64,000 nt of DNA from an uncultured beta proteobacterium (GCA_903869595.1 CAIPZV010000037.1:4600-68599); one strand, 5' to 3'; counted from the stretch's first letter, positions 11,341 through 41,497 are shown. Numbers and translations: made by a program. The notes: generated by a model from the sequence alone, not told the origin.

Positions 11341-11949
11341 ATGAACCTCACACTGGTATTGCTGATCATTTTCTTTCTTGTCGCCGTACTAGGCGCTGCC
11401 GTCTTTTATTACCTGACCTTGCAAAATCTGGCAGCGGTTAAGCGCGAAGTCCAAAAGCTGCGGGACCAGGCCGACGACGCAAGGGCCAGCGCTCTTTTGC
11501 GCAATGAGCGCGCGCGCTGCTACCAGCAACTTTTGGCCTTGGAAGCAGACATCCAGGCCCGCCAACGCGATAGCCTGAGCAATGAAGAAACTGCGATGGT
11601 GGAGCTCAACCGAGAAGAAATTCAGAACTGTGTCAACGCCCTGAAAAAATCCGGCAACTGGATGGGACTGCCCTTTGATCTGGAGTGGCAAGACATGTGG
11701 GATAAGCTGCCGCAGCTCAAAAACCTGTACCGAGCCAGCGTCATGCAGCAAGACTTTGAACCAGGCTTCATCTCGCCTTCAACTTCAGCGGGCGACACGC
11801 TTGACAATCCAGTGACCCATGCTGCACCCGCTGCAGTTGCGCCGACCCGCCCTGCGGCGGCAACGAGCGTCCCAGAACAGGCGCAGACCGCACCGCAGGA
11901 CAATTCCAAGGTGATGGCCGCTGCGATGAAAAATATGATGCGGGGCTAA
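11341..11949 (+). CDS. hypothetical protein (N-terminal TM helix plus coiled coil)
   Basis: Hydrophobic residues 4-25 followed by a helical region; no family recognised. Confidence 0.65.
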   Translation: MNLTLVLLIIFFLVAVLGAAVFYYLTLQNLAAVKREVQKLRDQADDARASALLRNERARCYQQLLALEADIQARQRDSLSNEETAMVELNREEIQNCVNALKKSGNWMGLPFDLEWQDMWDKLPQLKNLYRASVMQQDFEPGFISPSTSAGDTLDNPVTHAAPAAVAPTRPAAATSVPEQAQTAPQDNSKVMAAAMKNMMRG

Positions 11950-11954
11950 AGCTT

Positions 11955-12461
11955 ATGTCGACAACAACATCCATCCGACGGGCGCTATTAGGCGCGCTGC
12001 TGTTAGCTAGTGCGGCCCATGCCGGCATGTGGGAAGACGGCTATGCCGACTACCAACGCAAGGACTATGCAGCTGCGGTCGCCAAGTGGCAAATCGTCGC
12101 CGATACCGGAGACCGGGAGGCGCAGTCTTTGTTGGGCATGATGCATTTATTCGGCCAAGGTACACCACAAAGTTACCCTAAGGCCATGGTGTGGCTGCGC
12201 CGCGCTGCCGCACAAGGCGAGCCCAAGGCACAATTTCATCTAGGTACCATGTATGCCAGCGGCCAAGGCTATAAAGCCCAAGGTTTGGAGCGTGATTACC
12301 AAAAGGCGGCTATGTGGTTCATCATTGCCGAGCAGTCGGGGCATCCAGAGGCGGGCAAGTCGCTGAAAAAAGTGACTCCCGAGATCAGCGAGACGGATTT
12401 GGTGATTGCGCGCCGCTGGGCCAAGACCTGCATCAAGCGCGAATTCAAGGGCTGCGAATAA
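11955..12461 (+). CDS. secreted Sel1-like repeat protein
   Basis: Signal-peptide-like N-terminus (RRALLGALLLASAAHA) and 2-3 Sel1 repeats (AQSLLGMMHLFGQG, AQFHLGTMYASGQG). Confidence 0.85.
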   Translation: MSTTTSIRRALLGALLLASAAHAGMWEDGYADYQRKDYAAAVAKWQIVADTGDREAQSLLGMMHLFGQGTPQSYPKAMVWLRRAAAQGEPKAQFHLGTMYASGQGYKAQGLERDYQKAAMWFIIAEQSGHPEAGKSLKKVTPEISETDLVIARRWAKTCIKREFKGCE

Positions 12462-12492: not shown

Positions 12493-13503
12493 TTATTCTT
12501 TTTTGACCGTGATGCTCATGCGCCGGTTACGCGCGTCTTTGGGGTCATTGGGGTTATAGGGCACGGTATCGGCCACGCCCTCGATCTGCACAAAACGGTC
12601 TTGTTTGATGCCGTTTTTCTCGAGCACCGAGCGCGTCGCTTCGGCGCGTTCGACGGATAGAAGCCAGTTGTTGCGCCCGTCTTTGTTGGCAAAAGGCGTG
12701 GCGTCGGTATGGCCGCGCACGGCAATTTTGTTGGGCATGCCCGCCAGCGATTTGGCGATTTCCCCTAACAAGGCCTGCGCCTTGGGCTGCAGCTTGGTCG
12801 TGCCCAGTGGGAACATAGAGAAGTCCGCTTTGTCGATGACCTCAATGCGCAAGCCGTCTTTGTCGCGGACGAATTGCACCTGTCCTTGCAACTGCTCCAG
12901 CGCCGGGTTCGACGCCATCGCCTCTTTAACGTCTTTTTCCATCTGGTCCATTTTTCCTTTTTCACCGCCCTGCCCGGTGCCGGTACCGCCGCCCTCGCCT
13001 TCGCCGGTTCCGGGCGACTGGTTCTGGGTTTTGGCGTCGTTATCGCGCGCGTTTTCGCTATTGGGTGAAGGGTCGTTTTCCGTGGGGCCACCCTCCGACT
13101 TGGGCGTCAGCCGCTCCATGAGGCCGGTTTGCTTGGCGGTGTAAGGAAAGCCGTCCGGGTCGATGATGGAGCGTCCGCCCATGATGCCGTTGGAGCCGGC
13201 CAGCGCGCCCATGGTGATGGCGCTTTGCGAGGCGGGCTTGAAATAATCCGCGACACTTTTGCGCTGCGAATCGTTGGTGGCGCCCAAAATCCACATCAAC
13301 AAGAAGAAGGCCATCATCGCCGTCATCATGTCGGCAAGCGCAATTTTCCAACCACCGCCATGTGCACCCGCGTGCGCGGCGGCAATCTTTTTGACAATAA
13401 TCGGAGCAAGCGGCGCGTCCTCTTCTGGCGCCGCAACATCTTCGGCGCCCGGCGCCGCAGCACCTGCGGGGACTTCTTCTTCCTTCGGCGCTTCAGTGGC
13501 CAT
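12493..13503 (-). CDS. motB: flagellar stator protein MotB
   Basis: WKIALADMMTAMMAFFLLMW TM segment with the conserved Asp; OmpA-like domain (GHTD, NWLLSVERA, RNRR). Confidence 0.95.
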   Translation of the reverse strand: MATEAPKEEEVPAGAAAPGAEDVAAPEEDAPLAPIIVKKIAAAHAGAHGGGWKIALADMMTAMMAFFLLMWILGATNDSQRKSVADYFKPASQSAITMGALAGSNGIMGGRSIIDPDGFPYTAKQTGLMERLTPKSEGGPTENDPSPNSENARDNDAKTQNQSPGTGEGEGGGTGTGQGGEKGKMDQMEKDVKEAMASNPALEQLQGQVQFVRDKDGLRIEVIDKADFSMFPLGTTKLQPKAQALLGEIAKSLAGMPNKIAVRGHTDATPFANKDGRNNWLLSVERAEATRSVLEKNGIKQDRFVQIEGVADTVPYNPNDPKDARNRRMSITVKKE

Positions 13504-13505
13504 GC

Positions 13506-14369
13506 TTACTTCCCGCGCAGCCCGTCAAATACTTCGGCAAAACTCGGTTGGTTGTGGTGGCTGATACAGACGCGCGCGGCTTCCAAAATCAGCGGCATGG
13601 GGTGACCGTGTAGGGTGCCGACAATGATTTGCTTGACGACACCGTACATACAGGCCTCGTCTTCAATGATTTGTTCCAGGCGCTTGGCAAAGGGCTCGAA
13701 AAATCCGTAGGCCAAAAACACGCCGATAAACGTTCCCACCAGCGCCGCGCCCACCAGACCACCCAAAATCGCTGGAGGTTGGTCGATGTTGTCCATGGTC
13801 TTCACCACACCCATCACGCAAGACACAATGCCCAGCGCGGGCAAGGCACCGGCCAGCGTCGAAATGGCGGCCGAGGCCTTCAGTTCGTCGTGGTGGTGGG
13901 TTTTGATGGCGCTGTCCATGATCTCTTCGACCGCCATGGTGCTGATCGTGCCCTGGGACACAACCATCAAGCGGACAGTGTCACAAATCAGGTGTAGCAG
14001 GGCGTGGTCAGCGATGATTTTGGGATATTCGCCGAAAATCGCGCTCGAATCTGGGTTCTCGATATGGGCTTCCAGGGCCACGGCGCCCTCGGTTTTGAGC
14101 GTTTTCATCACCTTGGACACGCAAAAAATCGTGTTCAAGTAGTCGTCTTTGTGGTACTTGGCGCCCTTGAAGGTGCGGCCAATGCCAGCAAACACCGCTT
14201 TGACCACGTCCGGGCTATTGCCAATAAACATGCCGCCCAGGGCGGAGCCAAAAATACACCATCCTTCAATGGGCGCAGCGTGGATAAACGGCGCCATGCT
14301 ACCGCCGCCCACAATAAAGCTGCCAAAAACGCAGACATTCAAGAACACAATCCCGAAAATGCCAAACAT
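13506..14369 (-). CDS. motA: flagellar stator protein MotA
   Basis: LEAHIENP and LPALGIVSCVMGVV...ALVGTFIGVFLAYG motifs; ATG at 14369. Confidence 0.93.
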   Translation of the reverse strand: MFGIFGIVFLNVCVFGSFIVGGGSMAPFIHAAPIEGWCIFGSALGGMFIGNSPDVVKAVFAGIGRTFKGAKYHKDDYLNTIFCVSKVMKTLKTEGAVALEAHIENPDSSAIFGEYPKIIADHALLHLICDTVRLMVVSQGTISTMAVEEIMDSAIKTHHHDELKASAAISTLAGALPALGIVSCVMGVVKTMDNIDQPPAILGGLVGAALVGTFIGVFLAYGFFEPFAKRLEQIIEDEACMYGVVKQIIVGTLHGHPMPLILEAARVCISHHNQPSFAEVFDGLRGK

Positions 14370-14448
14370 AGTCGTTCCCAAAAGGACGGTTTGCTGAGCC
14401 CAAGGCTACCCGCAAACCTGTAAAGGCCACACAAAGGTGGCCCGCAAA

Positions 14449-30993: not shown

Positions 30994-32133
30994 TTAAACG
31001 CCTTCGCGCAGTCCGAATTTCTGAATTTTTTCTATCAGCGTGGTGCGCTGCACGTTCAGAATGCGTGCCGTCTGCGACACATTACCATTGGTACGGCTCA
31101 GGGCCTGAGCGATCAGATCGCGCTCGATTTCGGCGAGGCGGTGCTTCAGTGACAAACCTTCGGGCGGCAGCACCGGTAAGGCCTGGGACATAAAGGTCAT
31201 TTGCTCGACCTGATTAGGTTCGTCTTCGACCTCGCCCTCATCCTCATCCGATAATTCGTCAAACAAACCGCCTGAAGTGGGGCCATCAGCAAAAGCGCCC
31301 GAAGCCAAAGCAGGGTCTATCTGGGGCAAGTCCCCCGAGTCGGCCAGCGCTTTGTAAGCCAGCATGCCCTTGGGTAAAAGGCTCTTGGAAAAATCTTTCA
31401 ATTCCAGGCACTGCCCAGCAAACAAGGTGCTGAACCGGTCGATCAAATTAGATAATTCCCGCACGTTGCCAGGCCACTGGTAGGACTGCATGGCATAAGT
31501 GAAGTCCGGAGCGAAGGTGATGGGTTTTTCACCTGGGCCCGCGTGGTGCTTAGCAAAAAATTGCAGCAGCAAGGGCACATCGTTGGCCCGCTCGCGCAAG
31601 GGTGGCGTGTTAAGCGGCAGCACGTTCAGACGGTAATACAAGTCTTCGCGAAAACGCCCGGCGGCGATCTCGGCCTCTAGGTCGCGGTGGGTAGCAGCAA
31701 TCACGCGCACGTCAATCGGAATGGGCTTGGTACCGCCCACCGGGTCTATCACCCGCTCTTGCAGCACGCGAAGCAATTTGACTTGCAGCTCCAGCGGCAA
31801 GTCGCCAATTTCGTCTAAAAAAATAGAGCCGTTGTGGGCCAGCTCAAAACGCCCCACCCGGTCGGTCACGGCGCCGGTAAAAGCGCCCTTGCGGTGGCCA
31901 AACAGCTCGCTTTCAATCAAATCTTTGGGGATGGCCGCGCAATTAATCGGCACAAAATTGGCATTGGCCCGGTGCGACAGGTCGTGTAGCGAGCGCGCCA
32001 CAATTTCCTTGCCGGTGCCGCTCTCGCCGGTGATCAAGACGGTCGAGCTCGATGCCGCCACGACGGGCAAAAGGTCCCGGATGGCCCGAATGGCATCACT
32101 TTCACCAATAAAATTGAGAGCGTTTCGCGACAT
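30994..32133 (-). CDS. fleQ: sigma54-dependent activator, FleQ-like, lacking an N-terminal regulatory domain
   Basis: [28 protein letters not shown] and a C-terminal Fis HTH; starts directly at the AAA+ domain. Gene name assigned from flagellar context. Confidence 0.8.
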
Positions 32134-32323
32134 GGAACCTTGTGTGGGACCGCCCCCGCGCCCCGAAAAGGGCGCCCTTATTGGGGCCTGACGCCAAAAT
32201 CATACCAGTAAGTGTCATTTTTCAGACAGTACACATGTGTTTTTTTACATTTTTCATGGTTTGTTTCACAAATTACACGAATTACCGGTGCTAAGTATGC
32301 TTTTTTAAGCAAATCAGGCTAGT

Positions 32324-32339
32324 TGGTACGCAAACTGCA
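32324..32339 (+). promoter_or_regulatory. putative sigma54 promoter upstream of the Sel1/J-domain module
   Basis: TGGTACGCAAACTGCA with GG-N10-GC spacing, 71 nt upstream of the GTG start. Confidence 0.6.
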
Positions 32340-32410
32340 TAATCAAGATGAACACGAGGCCGCCGGCTTGTCCAAGCCCGGACCTGGTGCCCAACCCTTA
32401 GACCACAGGC

Positions 32411-33742
32411 GTGACCGACCTCGCTCCCGATTTACAACTTGCCGCCCTCACCAATCTGGGCCTGATGTACGCCCAAGGCCATGGGGTGGAGCAGGATTTC
32501 GTGCGCGCGCTGGACTGCTACCGCCAGGCCGCCGAACATGGCGTGCCGCAGGCCCAATCGAATCTGGCGGTAATGTATGCCCATGGCCAGGGCGTGCAAC
32601 AAGATTTTGCGCAGGCCCACAAGTGGTACCAGGCTGCCGCCGAACAAGGCCTGCCCTATGCCCAAACCAATCTGGCGGTGATGTACGCCAACGGCCAGGG
32701 CGCGGCGCGGGACTACCAGCAAGCCCTCAAGTGGTACCAAGCAGCAGCCGAGCAAGGCGACACCAGCGCCCAGCGCGGCCTGGGCGTGATGTATGCCAAC
32801 GGTCAGGGCGTACCGCAGGATTTCGGGCTGGCCTTGCAGTGCTATCAAAGTGGCGCCGCTGCGGGCGACGCCGCTGCCCAGTACGGCATGGGCGTGATGT
32901 ACGCCAACGGACACGGCGTAGCGCAAGACTTAAAGCAAGCTTGCCACTGGTACCAGCTGGCCGCTGCCCAAAACCACTTGCACGCTTTGTTCAATTTGGG
33001 CTTTTTGTATTCCAATGGCCAGGGCATGGCGGCGGACTTGGGCAAAGCCCTGGATTGCTATGAGCGCGCCGCCGCGCTGGGCGATGCCGCCGCGCAGTAC
33101 AACCTCGGCGTGCTTTACAGCAGCGGCCAAGGCACTGACCTGAATACCGAAAAAGCGCTGCATTGGTACCAAAAAGCCGCCGAACAAGGCGATGCCGCAG
33201 CGCAATTCAACCTGGGCCTGATGTACGCCACCGGCCAGGGCGTGGCGCAAGACGATGCGGCGGCACTGGCCTGGTACCAATTGGCCGCCGACCAGGGCGA
33301 CGCGCAGGCCCAGTACAACCTGGGCGTGATGATTGCCAATGGCCAAGGAACCTTGGCCAGCCGCACCGTGGCCATGCAATGGCTGCAACTTGCCGCCGAC
33401 CAGGGCGATGCGCTGGCCTGGTACAACTTAGGCGCCCTCTACCAGGAAGGCGCGGACCAGGCACCGGATTACCAACGCGCCTTACAGTGCTACCGCAAAG
33501 CGGCCCAGGGCGGCCAGGCCGATGCCCAAGCCGCACTCGGTTGGTTGTACGCCAACGGCATGGGCGTGCTGCAAGACTATGTGCGCGCCCATATGTGGTT
33601 TAACGTGGGCGCGGTCAGCGGCCATGCGCAAGCGGCTAGCGGACGCGAGTTTGTGGCCCAGCAAATGGCACCGATGCAAATCGCGCAAGCGCAAGACCTG
33701 GCGCGTAAATGCATACAGGAACAATTTGCTGGCTTTGACTAG
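32411..33742 (+). CDS. Sel1-like repeat protein (11 repeats), no signal peptide
   Basis: 36-aa units AQxNLGxMYANGQGVxQDxxxAxxWYxxAAxQG. Confidence 0.9.
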   Translation: MTDLAPDLQLAALTNLGLMYAQGHGVEQDFVRALDCYRQAAEHGVPQAQSNLAVMYAHGQGVQQDFAQAHKWYQAAAEQGLPYAQTNLAVMYANGQGAARDYQQALKWYQAAAEQGDTSAQRGLGVMYANGQGVPQDFGLALQCYQSGAAAGDAAAQYGMGVMYANGHGVAQDLKQACHWYQLAAAQNHLHALFNLGFLYSNGQGMAADLGKALDCYERAAALGDAAAQYNLGVLYSSGQGTDLNTEKALHWYQKAAEQGDAAAQFNLGLMYATGQGVAQDDAAALAWYQLAADQGDAQAQYNLGVMIANGQGTLASRTVAMQWLQLAADQGDALAWYNLGALYQEGADQAPDYQRALQCYRKAAQGGQADAQAALGWLYANGMGVLQDYVRAHMWFNVGAVSGHAQAASGREFVAQQMAPMQIAQAQDLARKCIQEQFAGFD

Positions 33743-33789
33743 GCTGCCTGCCGGTCACGCAGCAAAGCCCTTGCGCTAGCGCCCCGCCT

Positions 33790-35073
33790 ATGCTCTCTTC
33801 CTCCTCGGACTCCGACTACCAGGCCTACTTTGCCGATGCCGCCAGCGCCGTGCAATCGGTGCTGGCCGCTGCGCGCCAGCAAGTGGTGTGCGCACTGGCG
33901 CGCGACTGCAGCCGCCATTGGTTTGAGCTGCTGCTTCAGGTGGCGCGACGCGGCGTGGCGCTGCGTCTGTTGGTACCGGACACCGCGGCCAATCGCCAGT
34001 CCGCCATCGCCTGGGAACGCATCAGTGCCTTAGGTGCCGAACTGGTTTGGCTGGACAGCAGCGCGCCGATTTTGCAAACCCCGGTGTGCGTGGTCGATGG
34101 GCATACGGTACTTAGCGGCGCCATTACCGAATTGAGCACCGTGGCACGCGAAGACTTTGCCGGCGTGGTGCGGCAAAGCGACTTGGGTCTGGCAGCACGC
34201 TGCCTGCAAGGGCTGGACGCGATGGCGCCACATGTCGCAGCCCTAGCCGAAGCCGAAACAATCGCGCAAACCGCCAACGGCCATGCTTTGGTCCTCAGCG
34301 CCGACCTGCAAGCCCGCACCGCCGCTTGGCAAAGCGAACTCTTGCAATGCCAGAGCCTGGCGCTGCAAGCCGAGTTAGATGAAATGCAGCGCAGCATGCA
34401 AAGTTTTGAAAGGCAGCAGGACGCGGCCATTGGCGATTTGCTACGCGAGTTTTTGGATCTCAAGCGCCAGTACCTGGCCCAGATGCACGCGCGCTTTGGT
34501 GGTGCAGAGCGCGGAGACCAAGCGCGCGAGGCCGATGAAAGTTTTAGCCGCTACACCGAAAGCCACCCGGACGACGAGCACCTAGATGCACCGCCCGAAC
34601 TAGACATCCAAGCGCAACAAGAACTCAAACGCCTCTACCGCAAACTAGCCATGCAATGCCACCCGGACCGCGTGGACTCGGCCCAAGACAAGCAACATGC
34701 ACAGGCTTTGTTCCAGCGTCTGCAACGCAGTTACCAAGCCAGCGATATGCGCGGCCTGCAAAAGCTGCAAGCCCAGTTAGAACTAGGCCAGGACGCCAGT
34801 AGCGCGCGCGCACCAGGCGCCGCCTCAGCGACCCGCCGCGCCCCGGCGCAATGGGCGATGGAGCTGAGCGCGCTGCAAAGTACCCTGGCGCAGCAACAGG
34901 CGCAGCGCCTCGAGATTTTGCAAAGCGCCACCTGGCGCACGCTGGTAAGCCAAAGTCGTTGGGACTTGTGGTTTGCGCAGCAGGCCAAGCACCTGGAAAC
35001 CGAAGTGGCGCGCTACCGCGAAGCGCTGCAAGAGGCGCCAGCCCAAGACCCTGCGCAGATTCAGCAAGGCTAA
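33790..35073 (+). CDS. PLD-like (degenerate) domain, coiled coil and J-domain protein
   Basis: J-domain core LKRLYRKLAMQCHPDRV...FQRLQRSY with HPD at about 34660; the N-terminal ~150 aa follow a PLD-like pattern but lack HxK. Confidence 0.75.
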   Translation: MLSSSSDSDYQAYFADAASAVQSVLAAARQQVVCALARDCSRHWFELLLQVARRGVALRLLVPDTAANRQSAIAWERISALGAELVWLDSSAPILQTPVCVVDGHTVLSGAITELSTVAREDFAGVVRQSDLGLAARCLQGLDAMAPHVAALAEAETIAQTANGHALVLSADLQARTAAWQSELLQCQSLALQAELDEMQRSMQSFERQQDAAIGDLLREFLDLKRQYLAQMHARFGGAERGDQAREADESFSRYTESHPDDEHLDAPPELDIQAQQELKRLYRKLAMQCHPDRVDSAQDKQHAQALFQRLQRSYQASDMRGLQKLQAQLELGQDASSARAPGAASATRRAPAQWAMELSALQSTLAQQQAQRLEILQSATWRTLVSQSRWDLWFAQQAKHLETEVARYREALQEAPAQDPAQIQQG

Positions 35074-35075
35074 GC

Positions 35076-36548
35076 ATGGGGCAGTTACAAATTTCATCCG
35101 CCGCAGGCGCACTGACACCCTTAGAGCGCAAGCGCTTGGATATGGTGGCCCACACCCTGGCCGGCTTGCACGAAACCCAGGCCCTGCAATTTTTCCGCGA
35201 CCGGCCCGCGCTCTTGGCGGCTTGCCTGCAACAGCATTACCCGCTGGACCATGCACTGATGGAGACCCTGGGCCAACGCAAAGACTGGCGCATGCTCAGC
35301 GCCAGCCGCGTGTTGCAATGGACCGACGAACTGATAGAGGCGTATACCGAAGACTGGGACTGGGAGCTGCTCAGCAAAAACCCGGCCCTGCCCTGGTCCG
35401 GCGCCTTGCTGGAGCGCTATACCGAACGCTGGAACTGGCAGTCTTTGTGTACCAACCCCGGTCTGCCCTGGAGCCAAGCGCTGCTGGAGCAATTTGTGTA
35501 TCGCTGGAACTGGGCGGTGCTCAGCCGCAACGCCGAACTGCCCTGGACGGCCGCCTTTATCGAAGCCAATGCCCACCGCTGGGACTGGACCGCTCTGAGC
35601 TGGAACACCGGCCTGCCCTGGACCGTGGGCTTGCTAGAAAACTACCGGGAGCGCTGGGACTGGACCGGCCTGAGCGCCAACACCTCGCTGCCCGGTGACG
35701 CGGCGCTGGTCGAGCGCTTTGCCCAGCACTGGCAGTGGACTTGGCTGAGCGCCAACCCCAGCTTGCGCTGGAGCGAAGCACTTATCACGCGCTATGCCGC
35801 GCAATGGGACTGGGAGGCCTTAAGTAGCCAAGCGCAATTGCCCTGGAGCCCGGAGCTGATCGCGCGCCATGCCGAACTGTGGGACTGGAGCGCTTTAAGC
35901 GCCAACCCGCACCTACCTTGGACCCCGGAGCTATTGCACGCCTGGCCCGCACGCTGGGATAGCGCCGCCCTCTGGCGCAACCCGGCGTTGCCCTGGCGCG
36001 AACTGCTGGTTACATGGAGCGAGTCGGCCTGGCTGCAAGCGCCGCAACCACGGGCCCCTCCCGCACCCCTGCAAGCCTGGGACTGGGACGGCTTGAGCGA
36101 AAACCCGGCGCTGCCTTGGAGTGCGGCGCTGCTAGAAGCCTTGCAAGACCAATGTGACTGGGACCGCCTAAGCTGGAACCCGGGCCTGCCCTGGGACGGC
36201 GATTTACTCGCGCAATTCACCCGCGACTGGGACTGGAGCGGCCCCAGCAGCAGCGCCACCCTGCCCTGGAGCGGCGCGCTGCTCGCGCAACATGCCGACG
36301 ATTGGGACTGGGAACGCCTGAGCGCCAACGCGGCTATTGCCTGGTCTGAGGACCTGCTGGCGCCTTACGCCGATCGGCTGAACTGGGCCACCCTGAGCGC
36401 GCAAGCCACCCTGCCCTGGAGCACCGCTTTCTACCTGCGCTTTGACGCGCACTGGTTTCCCAGCCTGGTGGCGCAGCACCAAGGGCTCAATATCCACCAC
36501 TTGAGCAGCGACGACATCACGACACTGTTGCAGGAAAAGCCGTCATAA
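35076..36548 (+). CDS. Trp-rich 25-aa tandem repeat protein (15 units)
   Basis: Units WDWxxLSxNxxLPWxxxLLxxxxxx; ATG 2 nt after the upstream stop. Confidence 0.85.
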   Translation: MGQLQISSAAGALTPLERKRLDMVAHTLAGLHETQALQFFRDRPALLAACLQQHYPLDHALMETLGQRKDWRMLSASRVLQWTDELIEAYTEDWDWELLSKNPALPWSGALLERYTERWNWQSLCTNPGLPWSQALLEQFVYRWNWAVLSRNAELPWTAAFIEANAHRWDWTALSWNTGLPWTVGLLENYRERWDWTGLSANTSLPGDAALVERFAQHWQWTWLSANPSLRWSEALITRYAAQWDWEALSSQAQLPWSPELIARHAELWDWSALSANPHLPWTPELLHAWPARWDSAALWRNPALPWRELLVTWSESAWLQAPQPRAPPAPLQAWDWDGLSENPALPWSAALLEALQDQCDWDRLSWNPGLPWDGDLLAQFTRDWDWSGPSSSATLPWSGALLAQHADDWDWERLSANAAIAWSEDLLAPYADRLNWATLSAQATLPWSTAFYLRFDAHWFPSLVAQHQGLNIHHLSSDDITTLLQEKPS

Positions 36549-36592
36549 AACGAGCCCATGGCGTCCAACAAATGTAAAAAACGCGGTTTGGA

Positions 36593-36608
36593 AGGCACAA
36601 AACTTGCG
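36593..36608 (+). promoter_or_regulatory. putative sigma54 promoter upstream of the small ORFs and large Sel1 gene
   Basis: AGGCACAAAACTTGCG matches GGCAC-N5-TTGC exactly. Confidence 0.7.
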
Positions 36609-36704
36609 TAACCGTCCAGATGTAGCGCCTGTAACTTCATCGGGCGTCAAAAAAACCATTGAAAAGCGCCAAAGCCTGTTGCCAGGGCGCACGAGGAAAT
36701 TGCC

Positions 36705-36920
36705 ATGACCGAGGTGAAACACCAGCCCAGCCAAGCCCAGCATCTGGAGGCGGCAGCCCATCCCGCGCGCGGCCCGTCCACCCAATGGCTGGCTGAATCC
36801 ACGCTGGTGGTTTCGCGCCAGGCGCATGTGCCGCACGGGCAAAAACTCTATGCCGTGGAGCACCAGGCCCACCCAGTACAGCACCAGGCCCTTCCCATGC
36901 TGAGCCAACACCAGGAATGA
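36705..36920 (+). CDS. small His/Gln-rich hypothetical protein (71 aa)
   Basis: GAGGA RBS before ATG; downstream of the sigma54 motif; stop overlaps the next ATG. Confidence 0.5.
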   Translation: MTEVKHQPSQAQHLEAAAHPARGPSTQWLAESTLVVSRQAHVPHGQKLYAVEHQAHPVQHQALPMLSQHQE

Positions 36921-36985
36921 GTTTGCCCCGCGCCTTCCCCCAAGCCTGTGCGCCGCTAGCGCATGCGGTGGGAGTGCGCGCATGA
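36917..36985 (+). CDS. possible 22-aa coupling peptide MSLPRAFPQACAPLAHAVGVRA
   Basis: ATGA overlaps at both ends (36917-36920 and 36982-36985); below the ORF-track length cutoff. Confidence 0.3.
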   Translation: MSLPRAFPQACAPLAHAVGVRA

Positions 36986-39609
36986 AAAATCTGCTCGCCG
37001 ACGCCGACGCGGCCTACCGCCGGGGCGACTTTGCCAATGCCTTGCGCATTTCGCGGCCTCTGGCCTCGCTGGAATACGCCGCCGCGCAAAACAACCTGGG
37101 CTTTATGTATGCCAACGGCCAGGGCGTGGCACAGGACTATGCGGAAGCGCTGAAGTGGTACCGCCTGGCCGCCGCGCAAGACTATGCGCCGGCGCAATAC
37201 AACCTGGGCTATATGTACGCCAACGGACAGGGCGTGGAACAAGACCACGCCCAAGCGCTGCAGTGGTACCAATTGGCCGCGGCACAAGGGCTGCCGGATG
37301 TGCAAACCAATCTGGCTTTTATGTATGCCAATGGCCAGGGCGTGGAACGTGATGCAGCGCAAGCGGCTTACTGGTTCGAGCGCGCCGCCGTGCAAGGCCA
37401 CGCCACCGCCCAATTCAATTTGGCCAGCATGCTGCTGCAAGGTGAAGGCATAGCCAAAGATACGGTGGGCGCACGCAAATGGCTGGAGTCTGCCGCCGTG
37501 CAAGGCCACAGTTATGCGCAATTCCAATTAGGCCTCTTGCTGGCACAAGGCAAAGACGTGGAGCCCGATGCCGAACTGGCGGCCAAGTGGTACCACAAAG
37601 CCGCCGACCAGGGCGATGCCCCGGCGCAATACAACCTGGGTCTGATGTACGCGCACGGCCAGGGCATTGCCCCGGACTTGTCGCTGGCCATGTCCTATTT
37701 CACGCTGGCCGCCGAACAAGGCCATGGCGATGCGCATTACAACCTGGCCGTGCTTTTAGCCCGGGTGGACGGCGAAGGCCGCGACGCGATTGATGGCACT
37801 GGCGCTGACGATGACGAAGACGCCCCCGGCCCCATGGCGCAAGCCCTGGTGCACTACCGCACCGCCGCCGCTTTAGGCCATGCGCAAGCGCAATACAACT
37901 TGGGCACGCTCAGTGCCAACGGCTATGGCGTGGCGCAAGACTATGCCGAGGCTTTGCAGTGGTACCAAATGGCCGCTGAGCGCGGCATGGCGCAGGCGCA
38001 GTTTCAGGTCGGGTTGATGTACCACATCGGCCAGGGCGTGACGCAAAACAGCACCCAGGCGCGCCAGTGGATGCACCTGGCCGCTGACCAGGGCCATGCC
38101 ATGGCGCAATGCAATTTGGGCGCGATGTACAGCCAAGGCCAGGGCGTGAGCCAAGACTTCACCTTAGCGCGCCAGTGGCTGCAACTCGCTGCCGACCAGG
38201 GCGACACCTTGGCGCAACATAACCTAGGCCTATTGCTCGCCCAAGGCAAAGGCGGCGCGCAAGACGCGGCCAAGGCCTATGACTATTTCGCGCTGGCGGC
38301 CCAGCAAGGCCATGGACCAGCCCAATTCAACCAAGGCGTGGCGCTGGCCCAAGGCCATGGCGTGGCGCAAGACCTGCAAGCGGCACAAGCCTGCTGGCAA
38401 CACGCCGCCGACCAGGGCATGAGCGAAGCCATGTTCAACCTGGCCGTGCTGCGCGCCAGCCAAGACAATACTGATCCGCAGGTGCGCGCGTTCTACCAAG
38501 CCAGCGCGGACTTGGAAAACGCCGCCGCTCTGCACAACCTGGGCGTGATGTACGCCACCGGCAGCGGCACGGAGCAAGACGAAGCACAGGCCTTGCAGTA
38601 TTACCGCGAGGCCGCACGGCGCGGCGACGTAGCCGCGCAATACGCAGCTGCAGTCTTGCTGGCTGAGGGCCCGCAAGAACTGTGCGACGCGACGGCGGCA
38701 TTGGCCTATTTGGAACTGGCCGCAGCCCAAGGGCATCCGGCGGCGCAAGAGCGTCTGAACCTTCAACAATCAAACCAAAGCGCCAGCACTGCCGACTATG
38801 CGCGCCTGCTAGACAACTACCGCCTAGCGAGCGAACACGGCGACGCCTTGGCCGACTTCAATTTGGGCCTGCTTTACGCAGGTGGCCTGGGCTGCGAGGC
38901 CGATGCGGCGCTGGCGCAGCAGCACTATCTGCGCGCCGCCCAAGCGGGCATGGCGCAGGCGCAAAACAATTTTGCTATTGCCTTGCTACAGGCCGCCGAT
39001 ACCGGTGCGCAAGCCGATGTGAATGCAGAACAAGCAGGCCAATGGCTGCGCGAGGCCGCGGCCCAAAACTACCCGCTCGCCTGCTTTAACTTGGCGCTGT
39101 ACCAAAGCCGCAGCGGCGACGCGGCGCAGGTGCCAGAACTGCTGCGCCAAGCTGCCGAACAGGGCGTGGGCAAAGCCCAATTTAATTTGGGCTGGAATTT
39201 GGCATTTGGCGATAACGCCATTGCCAGCTTTACCCAAGCCCTGCCCTGGTTGCATAAAGCCGCCGAGCAAGACGATACCGACGCGCTCTACACCCTGGGG
39301 CGCATGCAGTTTTTCGGGCAAGGTTTGCCCGCCGATGCAACGCAAGCGCTGGCCTGGTACCAGCGCGCTGCCGCATTGGGCGATGGCGCAGCGCAATTTA
39401 ATTTGGGCTCCATGTACGCCAACGCCCAGGGCACGGCGCAAGACTATGCCCAAGCCTTGCAGTGGTACCGTGCAGCGGCCGGCCAGGCACCGGCACCCGC
39501 CCCAGCGGCACAACTGAACGCACCACCGGTCACCGCGCTGCCGACACGCGCCACGGAACCAGAGACTGTGGCCACTTCCGACAGCGATGCCATGAGGCGG
39601 GCCGCGTGA
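36982..39609 (+). CDS. large Sel1-like repeat protein (~22 repeats), no signal peptide
   Basis: Tandem 36-aa Sel1 units over the whole length; acidic insert GTGADDDEDAP in repeat 7. Confidence 0.9.
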   Translation: MKNLLADADAAYRRGDFANALRISRPLASLEYAAAQNNLGFMYANGQGVAQDYAEALKWYRLAAAQDYAPAQYNLGYMYANGQGVEQDHAQALQWYQLAAAQGLPDVQTNLAFMYANGQGVERDAAQAAYWFERAAVQGHATAQFNLASMLLQGEGIAKDTVGARKWLESAAVQGHSYAQFQLGLLLAQGKDVEPDAELAAKWYHKAADQGDAPAQYNLGLMYAHGQGIAPDLSLAMSYFTLAAEQGHGDAHYNLAVLLARVDGEGRDAIDGTGADDDEDAPGPMAQALVHYRTAAALGHAQAQYNLGTLSANGYGVAQDYAEALQWYQMAAERGMAQAQFQVGLMYHIGQGVTQNSTQARQWMHLAADQGHAMAQCNLGAMYSQGQGVSQDFTLARQWLQLAADQGDTLAQHNLGLLLAQGKGGAQDAAKAYDYFALAAQQGHGPAQFNQGVALAQGHGVAQDLQAAQACWQHAADQGMSEAMFNLAVLRASQDNTDPQVRAFYQASADLENAAALHNLGVMYATGSGTEQDEAQALQYYREAARRGDVAAQYAAAVLLAEGPQELCDATAALAYLELAAAQGHPAAQERLNLQQSNQSASTADYARLLDNYRLASEHGDALADFNLGLLYAGGLGCEADAALAQQHYLRAAQAGMAQAQNNFAIALLQAADTGAQADVNAEQAGQWLREAAAQNYPLACFNLALYQSRSGDAAQVPELLRQAAEQGVGKAQFNLGWNLAFGDNAIASFTQALPWLHKAAEQDDTDALYTLGRMQFFGQGLPADATQALAWYQRAAALGDGAAQFNLGSMYANAQGTAQDYAQALQWYRAAAGQAPAPAPAAQLNAPPVTALPTRATEPETVATSDSDAMRRAA

Positions 39610-39710: not shown

Positions 39711-40271
39711 ATGCAAGTTACTAAATTTATCTCCATCGCCCTGACCGCCATCGTGCTAAGTGCCTGCCAAGTCGCGCCTTTGCAAAATTTGATGGGCAAT
39801 GTCGGTCTAAACCCTGAAGCTGCCGCTGGCAATGGCGCGCAAGACAAAACCGCCAGCGAGCGCCCGGCCATGCTCAAAGTGCCCAGTGAGTTGCTGGTAC
39901 CCAATCTGCCCCTGGTGGAAAAGCGTGAAAGCCTGACCGCTACCGGCTACGCCGTCATCAGTGTTCAAAATAGCAAAACGCCGGCACAGCAGCGCCTGAT
40001 GGCGATCCGCGCGGCCAAGCTCGACGCTTATCGCTCGCTGGCCGAACAGGTCTATGGCCTGCGCTTGGACGCTACTGCCACCGTGGCTGACATGGTGGTG
40101 CAAATCGACACCTTTCGCAGCAAGGTGGAAGGCGTGATTTATGGCGCGACCTTGGTGAGCATCACGCCCAGCGGCGACGATACGTATGAGACCACCCTGA
40201 CACTGGACAAAAGCACGGTGCAGGACTTGCGCATGCTGTACCTGACGCAGCTCACCGCGAAAAGCCGTTAA
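39711..40271 (+). CDS. flgP: FlgP/LPP20-like flagellar lipoprotein
   Basis: Lipobox LSAC; QRLMAIRAAKLDAYRSLAEQVYGLRL motif typical of FlgP. Confidence 0.8.
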   Translation: MQVTKFISIALTAIVLSACQVAPLQNLMGNVGLNPEAAAGNGAQDKTASERPAMLKVPSELLVPNLPLVEKRESLTATGYAVISVQNSKTPAQQRLMAIRAAKLDAYRSLAEQVYGLRLDATATVADMVVQIDTFRSKVEGVIYGATLVSITPSGDDTYETTLTLDKSTVQDLRMLYLTQLTAKSR

Positions 40272-40297
40272 TCCATAAAAAATTTAGCTACTCCACC

Positions 40298-41497
40298 ATG
40301 CGCCGCCTTCCCGCCCTGTTGATGACGCTGCTGCTGGCCGCCAGCGGCGCGGGTGTCTGGGCGCAAAACCTGAGCATGGATGAAAAGCTGGCGGCCATTC
40401 GCAAAAGCCTGGTCGAGACTGCGCTGGAAGGGCCGACCAAAGTCACTGCCACGCAATGGATTGATGCGCAGGGTGTGTTGCGTGAAAGCAGCAGCTTTCG
40501 CTCCGGCGTGGAAGTGCGCGGTGTGCGCGTAGTGGGCTACACCACCGACAGCGAAGGCGAAGCGAGCGCCACATTGCAGTTGCAGGAACTCTCGGGCAAG
40601 GGCAACGCCAAAGGCATGGGTGATGCAAAGAAGGCTGAGCCCGCGTGCAAACCCGCAAGCCCTGGCCGCTTGCAGCACTTAATGGGGATGCAATGGAATG
40701 TCAGCGGTCGCTTTTCGAGTGAAGAGCACAACCTGTTAGAGGAGTTGCGCGCGAATTGGCTGGGTCAATTGCGCACAACCGGCGCCACCACAGCGCTTTG
40801 GAACATTACCCCCAAGCCCCGCAACGAAGGGCGCAGCGGCTACGAACAAGCTTTGCTGGGTTCAGGCTCGGATGACCTGCCCTGGCTATTGGACCTGACA
40901 GTTGTCGCAGTTCCGAGATCGCAAGAAGCCAACACCGGATGGACCAATGCCAGCGATCGCGCGCCCATGCTGGCTGAAGAAAGCGCTCGCGCCTCGCCAC
41001 GCATCAACTGGGCCTTCAATATGCCGACGATGGTACGCGTCGAGGTGCAAATGCGCCTCATCGCCCGCAACCAAACCAAGCCCGTCTTGGTCCTTAACAC
41101 GCCCCTGACTTTGATCGCGCAGGAAGGCAACTGGGGTATCACCCAGCTCAGCAACAGTTCGCGCACACAAGCGCTGCAATTGGCAGAAAACAATGCCTTG
41201 GAGCTGTATAAAACCATGGTGTGCCAAACCGTGGTCGGCGAAGTCACGCAAGCGTTGGGCAAGCAATTTCGGATCAACCTGGGCACCGCTGCCGGGGTGC
41301 GCGTAGGGGATACCTGGGTACTGGCTGATGCGAGCAGGCTGCCCCAGCGTGCACTCGAGCCGGGCAACGCGGGGTTGACTGTAATGGCCAAGGTTCAGTA
41401 CGTCACCGAGCACTACGCGCAACTGACACCGACTGCTGGACCGGCGCAAAACGTGCAAACACGTTGGGCCGCCTGGTCGACCGAGGAAGCGCGCTAA
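40298..41497 (+). CDS. flgT: FlgT-like periplasmic flagellar assembly protein
   Basis: Signal peptide; C-terminal FRINLGTAAGVRVGD motif resembling FlgT_C; adjacent to flgP. Confidence 0.65.
   Translation: MRRLPALLMTLLLAASGAGVWAQNLSMDEKLAAIRKSLVETALEGPTKVTATQWIDAQGVLRESSSFRSGVEVRGVRVVGYTTDSEGEASATLQLQELSGKGNAKGMGDAKKAEPACKPASPGRLQHLMGMQWNVSGRFSSEEHNLLEELRANWLGQLRTTGATTALWNITPKPRNEGRSGYEQALLGSGSDDLPWLLDLTVVAVPRSQEANTGWTNASDRAPMLAEESARASPRINWAFNMPTMVRVEVQMRLIARNQTKPVLVLNTPLTLIAQEGNWGITQLSNSSRTQALQLAENNALELYKTMVCQTVVGEVTQALGKQFRINLGTAAGVRVGDTWVLADASRLPQRALEPGNAGLTVMAKVQYVTEHYAQLTPTAGPAQNVQTRWAAWSTEEAR

Follow-up and report, generated by a model that had tools for sequence, protein, structure and literature searches.

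A PLD-J protein that has lost its catalytic His and Lys, and a neighbouring Trp-repeat protein, in a flagellar locus of freshwater Comamonadaceae

A module of five genes lies at positions 32,324 to 39,609 of a 64,000-nucleotide stretch of DNA from an uncultured beta proteobacterium (GCA_903869595.1, CAIPZV010000037.1:4600-68599; the whole stretch is called the window here), between a divergently transcribed gene for a sigma54-dependent activator and the flagellar gene flgP. Comparison with relatives goes most of the way to establishing that this module descends from a mobile two-gene cassette, in which one predicted protein (PLDJ) joined a Nuc-type PLD domain through a coiled coil to a J domain and the other (Wrep) was a solenoid of Trp repeats. 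In the flagellar copies the catalytic His and Lys of the PLD domain are gone. The preferred reading, to which we give a probability of roughly 45%, is that a conflict cassette was exapted and now belongs to the flagellar regulon, as a scaffold that recruits DnaK. There is good support for the evolutionary origin; the present function we infer from the position of the genes, their conservation and the logic of their domains. The module is restricted to the giant-hook flagellar locus of the FlgP/FlgT type in freshwater Comamonadaceae (Rhodoferax-like), and all the carriers seen are metagenome-assembled genomes. What is new is a variant of known domain types combined with one repeat that had not been described.

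Proteins of the module and their origin

The five genes, all on the plus strand, are as follows.
32411-33742, plus strand: Sel1A, 443 amino acids (aa), about 11 Sel1 repeats (Pfam Sel1, 320 bits, 11 stretches)
33790-35073, plus strand: PLDJ, 427 aa, a pseudo-PLD domain, a long coiled coil, a J domain and a C-terminal helical domain
35076-36548, plus strand: Wrep, 490 aa, about 15 Trp repeats of 25 residues, modelled as an alpha-solenoid
36705-36920, plus strand: s71, 71 aa, His-rich, with orthologous open reading frames (ORFs) of constant length
36982-39609, plus strand: Sel1B, 875 aa, at least 15 Sel1 repeats (Pfam Sel1, 424 bits, 15 stretches)

A first-pass annotation of the window had described four large non-flagellar genes on the plus strand between the activator gene and flgP, and this layout holds, coordinates included. 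It had also listed two small ORFs, one of which was confirmed as s71; the second was not identified. The gaps are as it gave them, 47 nt between Sel1A and PLDJ and 2 nt between PLDJ and Wrep. In four related loci (L057, L073, L075 and L078) PLDJ and Wrep overlap by 4 nt, and from this close spacing or overlap it is possible that the two genes are translationally coupled. The annotation's view that every large protein is a scaffold or a co-chaperone with no intact enzyme is borne out by Pfam, by alignment of the HKD motif and by Foldseek comparison of structures.

The J domain of PLDJ is recognized by Pfam (DnaJ, 30.6 bits; cut-off 27.8), and its PLDc_2 match of 19.7 bits is below the cut-off of 27. 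An AlphaFold2 model made with 38 homologues has a predicted local distance difference test score (pLDDT) of 85.7, rising above 90 over most of residues 10-145, and shows, from the N-terminus on, an alpha/beta domain, a helix some 70 residues long, the J domain and a helical C-terminal part. In Foldseek the N-terminal domain matches the nuclease Nuc (1byr; E 7.9e-5, target-normalised template modelling (TM) score 0.72, root-mean-square deviation 2.9 over 147 columns), and further matches include Zucchini (4ggj), NucT (6ehi), PLD3/4 and the pseudo-PLD protein FAM83. The modelled fold is therefore like that of the single-HKD PLD nucleases of the Nuc/NucT/Zucchini group (PF13091; 1byr, 6ehi, 4ggj). 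PLDJ is unlike these nucleases in that its His and Lys are gone, its Pfam score is below the cut-off and a coiled coil and a J domain are attached to the PLD domain. Where the nucleases have HxKxxxxD(x6)GSxN, the window's protein reads QTPVCVVDGHTVLSGAI, and its segment QTPVCVVD..SGA stands against LHHKFCLID..GSFNWT in the stand-alone relatives. A PLD fold without catalytic residues that has been selected as a scaffold is also seen in the animal FAM83/SACK1 proteins (DUF1669), and the PLDJ family gives matches to Pfam SACK1 and to PDB entries 5lzk and 4urj. The two lineages are unrelated, however, and FAM83 anchors casein kinase 1, whereas the partners of PLDJ are a J domain and solenoids.

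The J domain is retained. Alignments of 9 and of 38 homologues show no variation in its HPD tripeptide (H291-P292-D293), which is flanked in the model by helices 273-290 and 298-316, and basic helix II reads LKRLYRKLAMQC. When compared with relatives for which the synonymous substitution rate (dS) is unsaturated, the ratio of nonsynonymous to synonymous rates (dN/dS) is 0.16-0.20 for the whole of PLDJ and 0.15-0.28 for the pseudo-PLD domain. All five ORFs of the module are intact in every locus read. The nuclease-dead copy is still in use, as seen from its intact ORFs, invariant HPD, purifying selection and transcripts. No description of the PLD-coiled coil-J architecture was found in the family libraries or papers searched.

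The origin of this dead copy can be traced through its stand-alone relatives. A search with the most distant of these, from Deefgea (its PLDJ is 33% identical to the window's), returned 81 proteins. Of 38 aligned family members, half (19) have a perfect GSLHHKFCLID....NGSFNWT and half (19) are without the His and Lys; the sequences that lack the two residues are the 19 of the flagellar type, and those that have them are the 19 of the stand-alone type. A single change on the maximum-likelihood tree accounts for the split (support 88/93; 90% of bootstrap trees). The copies that lost the HKD motif and have a readable context all lie in the flagellar locus (the window, P0035, P0038, P0064 and P0049). 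The HKD-intact copies, from Deefgea, Burkholderiaceae and metagenomes, are all outside flagellar loci, and a Wrep gene always follows them. With their full HxKxxxxD..GSxN these stand-alone relatives resemble the Nuc type, and the Deefgea protein reaches 87 bits with PLDc_2, against 19.7 for the window's. It also gives weak matches to DrmC of DISARM and to DpdK, both of the same nuclease group, and to MkoB and NucT, those to PADLOC models being on the PLD domain only.

Most of the HKD-intact cassettes seen in context are found in the company of defence or mobile genes. The neighbours of the Deefgea cassette are a type I HsdR (REase_I), an HD-CE/HATPase protein and a PDC-M05A nucleotidyltransferase. 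A second context has an HNH-DEDDh protein (PDC-S48-like) and HicB, a third an integrase and HicA, and a fourth HipA and PDC-S31. One non-flagellar cassette has a 772-aa J-RDD-Sel1-Lcl_C protein upstream, and in another Wrep is itself fused to Sel1 and two Lcl_C domains. Sel1 and a second J domain thus already occur with the cassette outside flagellar loci, and these families travel together there too. In the putative ancestral cassette the Trp-repeat solenoid is often accompanied by Sel1 and Lcl_C domains.

Wrep is the second partner in every one of these cassettes. Its repeat has the consensus WDWxxLSxNxxLPWSxxLIxxY, and the AlphaFold2 model (pLDDT 91; predicted TM score 0.78) is a solenoid of paired short helices. 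No match to Wrep was found in Pfam, in NCBIfam or among PDB sequences. An attempt to identify its fold by Foldseek against the PDB failed, with a best E of 0.38, a TM score of 0.25 and only a vague likeness to armadillo and ankyrin repeats. When 1.84 billion representatives were searched with a profile, 6,774 clusters came up at E <= 1e-3 and 873 at E <= 1e-30, the total of about 6,800 being a count of clusters at 50% identity. The fusion partners of the repeat include protein kinases, PLDc_2, DarT, PIF1/UvrD helicases, HRDC, HIRAN, RNase T, HNH, PHP, DprA/SLOG, SMI1 and Hsp70. From this pattern of fusions we infer that Wrep would be a recognition module of conflict systems.

Two of the fusions are notable for their genomic context. 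A PLDc_2-Wrep protein of Thiorhodococcus (P0132; L085 7001-8953) is cargo of a conjugative element, with TraI_2, TraG/TrwB and TrbC, and adjoins PemK/Phd-type toxin-antitoxin genes. An Hsp70-Wrep protein of 751 aa (P0092; L084 4998-9256) follows a LeoBC-like dynamin GTPase and has a second dynamin-like gene and transposase fragments nearby. This Hsp70-Wrep/dynamin locus may be an Eleos-like defence variant.

The other three genes of the module hold their positions as well. Sel1A orthologues (393-451 aa) and Sel1B orthologues (614-883 aa) have the same place in all related loci, and the Sel1 proteins flanking PLDJ and Wrep in L078 were confirmed by Pfam. Sel1A and Sel1B are taken to be cytoplasmic: inspection by eye showed no signal peptide in either, whether in the window or in the orthologues. 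The N-terminus of Sel1B is structured and highly conserved, not disordered, and Sel1A starts straight with repeats. The tail of Sel1B (39480-39609) is disordered and rich in Pro and Ala and may be a docking peptide; its last residues, (L/M)RRAA, are conserved between the window, G015 and G005. As for s71, its length of 71 aa is constant in six translated lineages although identity drops to about 25-30%, and gene calling gives a 71-aa gene at the corresponding position of L078, L079 and the P0038 contig as well. A protein search with it gave 20 clusters, all of 46-71 aa, 18 of them exactly 71 aa. Its motif is H(V/Q)xHGxKL, and all copies with a readable context lie within the module. Small ORFs near the stand-alone cassettes were considered as relatives of s71 and proved to be unrelated on comparison.

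Parts of the module have parallels in known systems. Like the class C J proteins DjlB and DjlC of Escherichia coli, PLDJ places an HPD-bearing J domain on a non-DnaJ targeting part, beside Sel1 genes (PMC8215388). DjlB and DjlC are both membrane proteins of the tail-anchored type (PMC8215388), whereas in the model of PLDJ an alpha/beta domain leads into long helices. The order ybeQ-ybeR-djlB-ybeT-ybeU-djlC-hscC, cited in the first-pass annotation as a parallel, is indeed annotated in E. coli, but the analogy is one of composition and there is no homology beyond the J domain: profile comparisons of DjlC with PLDJ and of YbeU with Wrep each gave an hhalign probability of about 0.1. Unlike the hscC cluster, the module has neither a dedicated Hsp70 gene nor a DUF1266 partner. 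Another parallel is MotX of the polar-motor T-ring in Vibrio and Shewanella, a Sel1-repeat protein of a flagellar system that has FlgP and FlgT. MotX is periplasmic, whereas no signal peptide is visible in the window's Sel1 proteins, which are also larger by a factor of two to four. An assignment of Sel1A and Sel1B to MotX itself (NF047621) was rejected, with scores of 99.9 and 149.8 bits against a cut-off of 330 and no signal peptide seen; matches to this model are generic, and the MerG, AlgK and ExoR models match the two proteins equally.

Among conflict systems, phage sensing by bNACHT25 needs the host DnaJ (PMC12169576), and Hsp70-like domains occur in CoCoNuT systems (PMC11090510). The cassette would be like these in wiring Hsp70/J machinery into a conflict system that bears a nuclease, and by this analogy such wiring was likely the logic of the ancestral PLD-J/Wrep pair. 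The bNACHT25 and CoCoNuT systems have NACHT or McrBC cores, and neither contains the Trp repeat or a fusion of PLD and J domains; in addition, nuclease activity is predicted to be lost in the window's copy. Membership of a system in PADLOC-DB 2.0 was not found for the window's proteins, since PLDJ and Wrep have no match there and Sel1A and Sel1B match only chance-level fragments of PtuA. In the literature, neither a system of PLD, J domain and Sel1 nor the occurrence of Sel1 with a J domain in flagellar loci was found to be described.

Linkage to the flagellar locus and expression

The genes that border the module are as follows.
30994-32133, minus strand: divergent sigma54-dependent activator, AAA+ domain plus Fis-type helix-turn-helix (HTH) domain (Pfam Sigma54_activat, 239 bits; HTH_8, 51.5 bits)
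39711-40271, plus strand: flgP, LPP20 lipoprotein (Pfam LPP20, 35 bits)
39711-41497, plus strand: flgP together with a flgT-like gene (FlgT_C, 20.6 bits, below cut-off), the constant right-hand border, outside the module

In 24 genomes of the same genus, full-length PLDJ is present in 8 and Wrep in the same 8, always adjoining PLDJ, and the flgT-like gene of these carriers is 4-5 kb away where contigs permit; G017 has only weak partial repeat matches to Wrep. The gene order, that is the divergent activator followed by Sel1A, PLDJ, Wrep, (s71), Sel1B, flgP and flgT, is identical in G015, G005, L066, G006, G012 and three metagenome contigs. This order holds even where PLDJ shares just 36-48% identity with the window's, as at 36% in G006 and G012. 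A pattern scan with one genome per species gave 51 loci, nearly all from freshwater Comamonadaceae. Of the 42 genomes searched, 41 have Wrep, which shares a contig with PLDJ wherever coordinates were compared; in the one without it, the locus stops at a contig edge. Downstream of Wrep, at a distance of 2.2-4.6 kb and with contig and strand unchanged, flgP follows in 30 of 36 genomes. Contig ends interrupt four of the other six, and the last two are outliers with HKD intact. The first-pass annotation had proposed a multi-gene module and had named homologues that occur singly and unlinked among the findings that would count against it. The neighbourhood searches found the opposite, a module of conserved order tied to the flagellar locus of the FlgP/FlgT type.

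Its naming of the activator gene as fleQ finds no support. By Pfam the protein consists of the AAA+ and HTH domains, with no N-terminal regulatory domain and no FleQ or receiver domain, and NCBIfam gives only generic enhancer-binding-protein matches, each below the cut-off. Orthologues of the activator in related loci are 70-97% identical, and the gene is divergent from the module in every carrier.

Two sigma54-like motifs lie within the module, at the places given by the first-pass annotation.
32324-32339, plus strand: site 1, -24/-12 motif TGGTACGCAAACTGCA, upstream of Sel1A
36593-36608, plus strand: site 2, -24/-12 motif AGGCACAAAACTTGCG, upstream of s71-Sel1B

Both sites have the form GG-N10-GC, resemble TGGCAC-N5-TTGC and score 18.0-18.2 of 20.7; stronger sites in the window precede flhA, fliL, flgA, flgB and flgH. 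Site 2 is kept as GGCAC, GGCAT or GGCGC followed by N5-TTGC in five of seven lineages (the window, L012, L013, L066 and L018), within a spacer that has otherwise diverged, and a sixth lineage (L078) has a variant motif just before s71. A shared block near site 1, GCAAAC(T/G)GCATAAT, may hold a sigma70-type -10 element; a scan of the module for sigma70 consensus promoters found none. Terminator-like hairpins are not commoner than in shuffled sequence. The two that are on the plus strand lie inside Sel1B and flgP, and none on this strand lies between genes.

Four lake metatranscriptomes hold contigs that are 95-99% identical to the module, these being strain variants that carry neither strand nor true depth. 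In run X1, summed contig depth is at most 1.4 over Wrep and 41-52 over s71 and Sel1B. Around site 2 it goes from 0 in the bin before to 41.5 in the bin after, with the step at 36612, which is compatible with a start at site 2 and is not proof of it. In two runs the contigs start from 32374, and the bin directly before this point is empty in X1 and nearly so in X2; this is compatible with a transcription start near 32350 and gives it weak support.

Proposed role and competing explanations

In the preferred reading, the PLD domain has been kept as a selected pseudo-enzyme and would act as a binding or dimerisation module. Nucleases with a single HKD motif must dimerise, and PLDJ would likewise dimerise through its PLD fold and coiled coil. 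It would also bind Wrep, and the two, with the Sel1 solenoids and s71, would make up a cytoplasmic scaffold in which Wrep and the two Sel1 solenoids hold a client while the J domain hands it to DnaK. Because HPD and basic helix II are kept, the J domain should still stimulate an Hsp70. There is no Hsp70 gene near the module, as the first-pass annotation had noted: of the genome's Hsp70 matches, two are full-length genes and one is partial, and none shares the window's contig (they are on C36, C60 and C28, the window on C37). The partner is therefore presumably the housekeeping DnaK. A PLD pseudo-enzyme joined to a retained J domain is thus read as a specialised class C J-protein adaptor, which the complex as a whole would form. 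Expression would be at least partly under the conserved sigma54 promoter of the flagellar regulon, and candidate clients are the large flagellar export substrates or the activator next door. The part in folding or exporting oversized flagellar proteins that the first-pass annotation suggested is a guess.

A number of observations weigh against this reading. The partner Hsp70 is assumed and the client is given by candidates only, and the tie to flagella consists of position, one conserved promoter motif and hints of co-transcription from unstranded contigs. At the stringency used, the window holds 94 sigma54-like sites compared with 42 in shuffles; the motif alone is not rare, so position and conservation have to carry the weight. 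Site 1 is found in just two of seven lineages, the window and its closest relative L012, and is absent at the aligned place in L013, L066, L078 and L016, so that as a conserved promoter it was rejected. Of the FleQ-timed expression proposed in the first-pass annotation, the part that concerns s71 and Sel1B is partly upheld by the conservation of site 2, and for Sel1A, PLDJ and Wrep such timing would be a possibility. On the side of ancestry, neighbours typical of defence islands were seen around the HKD-intact cassette in four of five contexts, which is a small sample, and in the fifth (L075-77) no defence or mobile genes were seen.

There are also relatives that do without the module. G007 and G022 have the same flagellar locus, in which activator and flgP face each other directly, and PLDJ and Wrep were not found anywhere in their genomes. 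G008, in which the FlgT match is split as in G007 and G022 and PLDJ and Wrep were again not found, is probably the same. In G007 there are 225 bp between the two genes, and activator and FlgP are 75% and 66% identical to the window's. Since this related clade has the same locus without the module, the flagellum does not need it and the module is an accessory. In a tree of the activator, the module-less L019 groups with the half that contains the window (100/100) against the half with L078 and L016. The tree has no outgroup and its root is open, but it favours secondary loss of the module in this clade.

Four other explanations deserve weighing. The module could still be a conflict system against phages or grazers, its killing chemistry swapped and its action timed with flagellar expression; it might guard, for example, against flagellotropic phages, with the dead PLD domain as a sensor or decoy and with DnaK sequestration or a solenoid as the effector. 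The suggestion of an anti-phage cassette in the first-pass annotation fits the ancestry well, as the HKD-intact cassette lies mostly in defence islands among defence and mobile genes. Wrep is fused elsewhere to DarT, HNH, PLD, kinases and RNase T, an Hsp70-Wrep protein sits beside a LeoBC-like GTPase, and presence within the genus is patchy; host DnaJ also mediates the phage sensing of bNACHT25 (PMC12169576). For the present-day module such a role is unlikely, though. None of its five proteins has a recognizable enzyme or toxin domain, their PADLOC matches amount to chance-level repeats with no system among them, and the module is found nowhere else in the carrier genomes. It is also fixed in one housekeeping-type locus over deep divergence, whereas defence genes usually turn over. 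That the module is a mere passenger, inserted once into the spacer between activator and flgP and kept for a non-flagellar function, is quite unlikely when all five genes are intact, unchanged in order and place even where identity falls to 36%, and selection is purifying. In this case the conserved sigma54-like motif would serve the module's own regulation or be due to chance, and such motifs are frequent; yet this one, at -24/-12, is kept by five lineages whose spacer has diverged, a sixth having a variant, and the sole loss of catalysis in the whole tree coincides with this location. A simple insertion does predict what is seen at the insertion point, on both sides of which the upstream block of the activator is conserved, and a related clade has the locus without the module.

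The remaining two explanations give the module a flagellar task of a different kind. It might be a trans-acting regulator of the neighbouring activator, binding it or delivering it to DnaK as a flagellar checkpoint, with a logic like that of PspA and PspF or of DnaK acting on FlhDC. Where an enhancer-binding protein has no sensor domain, its control usually comes in trans from the products of neighbouring genes (PspF from PspA, HrpRS from HrpV), and DnaK activates Salmonella FlhD4C2. The activator here is just such a protein, AAA+ plus HTH only, and it is divergent from the module in every carrier. The module-less clade, however, has the same domain-less activator, 75% identical, and the activator therefore does not need the module, so that this role is decidedly improbable. 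Least probable of all is that Sel1A and Sel1B leave the cell by way of the flagellar type III apparatus, to serve as surface factors or as effectors aimed at eukaryotic grazers, with PLDJ, Wrep and s71 as escort chaperones. Campylobacter is known to have secreted proteins that are co-expressed with the flagellum, and Legionella has Sel1 proteins that act on host cells. The two Sel1 genes sit in the flagellar regulon beside export genes, and their products lack Sec signals by eye although most bacterial Sel1 proteins are exported. Against this, Sel1B begins with a structured and highly conserved N-terminus and Sel1A with repeats, and the ancestral cassette has Sel1 partners outside flagellar loci.

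A bolder form of the preferred reading, in which an immune-type cassette of a PLD nuclease-J protein and a Trp-repeat sensor was domesticated once, in one flagellar lineage, into a nuclease-less and flagellum-dedicated DnaK-targeting machine, is possible but doubtful. If it were true, the ancestral PLD-J/Wrep pair would make up a new anti-phage system that is coupled to chaperones, and Wrep would be a new and widespread module with which conflict systems recognize their targets, with a role like that of the LRR, TPR and WD40 sensors of NLR-like proteins. Intact and dead forms of the enzyme coexist in public data, the dead ones on one branch and, in readable contexts, at one genomic address, and such an exaptation is a natural experiment on conflict genes re-used by a housekeeping machine. 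Defining the Wrep family would improve the annotation of many hypothetical proteins. The need for DnaK and DnaJ in flagellation is an old observation. A dedicated J-protein adaptor, if this is what the module encodes, would be a new kind of flagellar accessory in abundant lake bacteria and would make that requirement more directly testable.

Flagellar surroundings of the module

The carrier's flagellar system, of the FlgP/FlgT kind, is one of high complexity. The flagellar remainder of the window includes fliL, fliM, fliP, fliR and flhB, then flgA, flgB and a gene for a FlgE of 1,356 aa, as well as motA and motB. The motB and motA genes (12493-14381, minus strand) adjoin a gene for a Sel1 protein of two repeats (11955-12461) and an ORF of 202 aa (11341-11949). 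One further feature was noted upstream of the activator gene.
32206-32225, strand not assigned: imperfect palindrome AGTGTC-N8-GACAGT

The palindrome is kept in module-bearing loci and in the module-less locus of G007, and it is possible that it is the operator of the activator's own promoter.

There are two types of flagella within the genus, an ordinary one with a FlgE of 412-476 aa and the FlgP/FlgT type with a FlgE of 1,087-1,363 aa, the latter being the range in module carriers. The window's genome has the giant FlgE type only (E <= 1e-20), and G012 has both. Among 17 genera of the order, the flgT-like gene was seen in this genus only. G005 carries two complete module-bearing flagellar loci (contigs C2/L013 and C32/L015), with PLDJ copies that are about 47-48% and 44% identical to the window's; this could mean either two flagellar systems or two populations binned together.

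The flgE gene runs past the contig end in G007 and G008, which are module-less, and in G015, which suggests that assemblies break within the giant flgE insert. The N-terminal 161 residues of FlgE in G007 (contig C47, L019, 3-485) are 99% identical to those of the window (49325-49807), in contrast to 75% for the activator, 66% for FlgP and about 40-49% for FlgT. This difference suggests either a mosaic locus or extreme conservation of the D0/D1 part of the hook.

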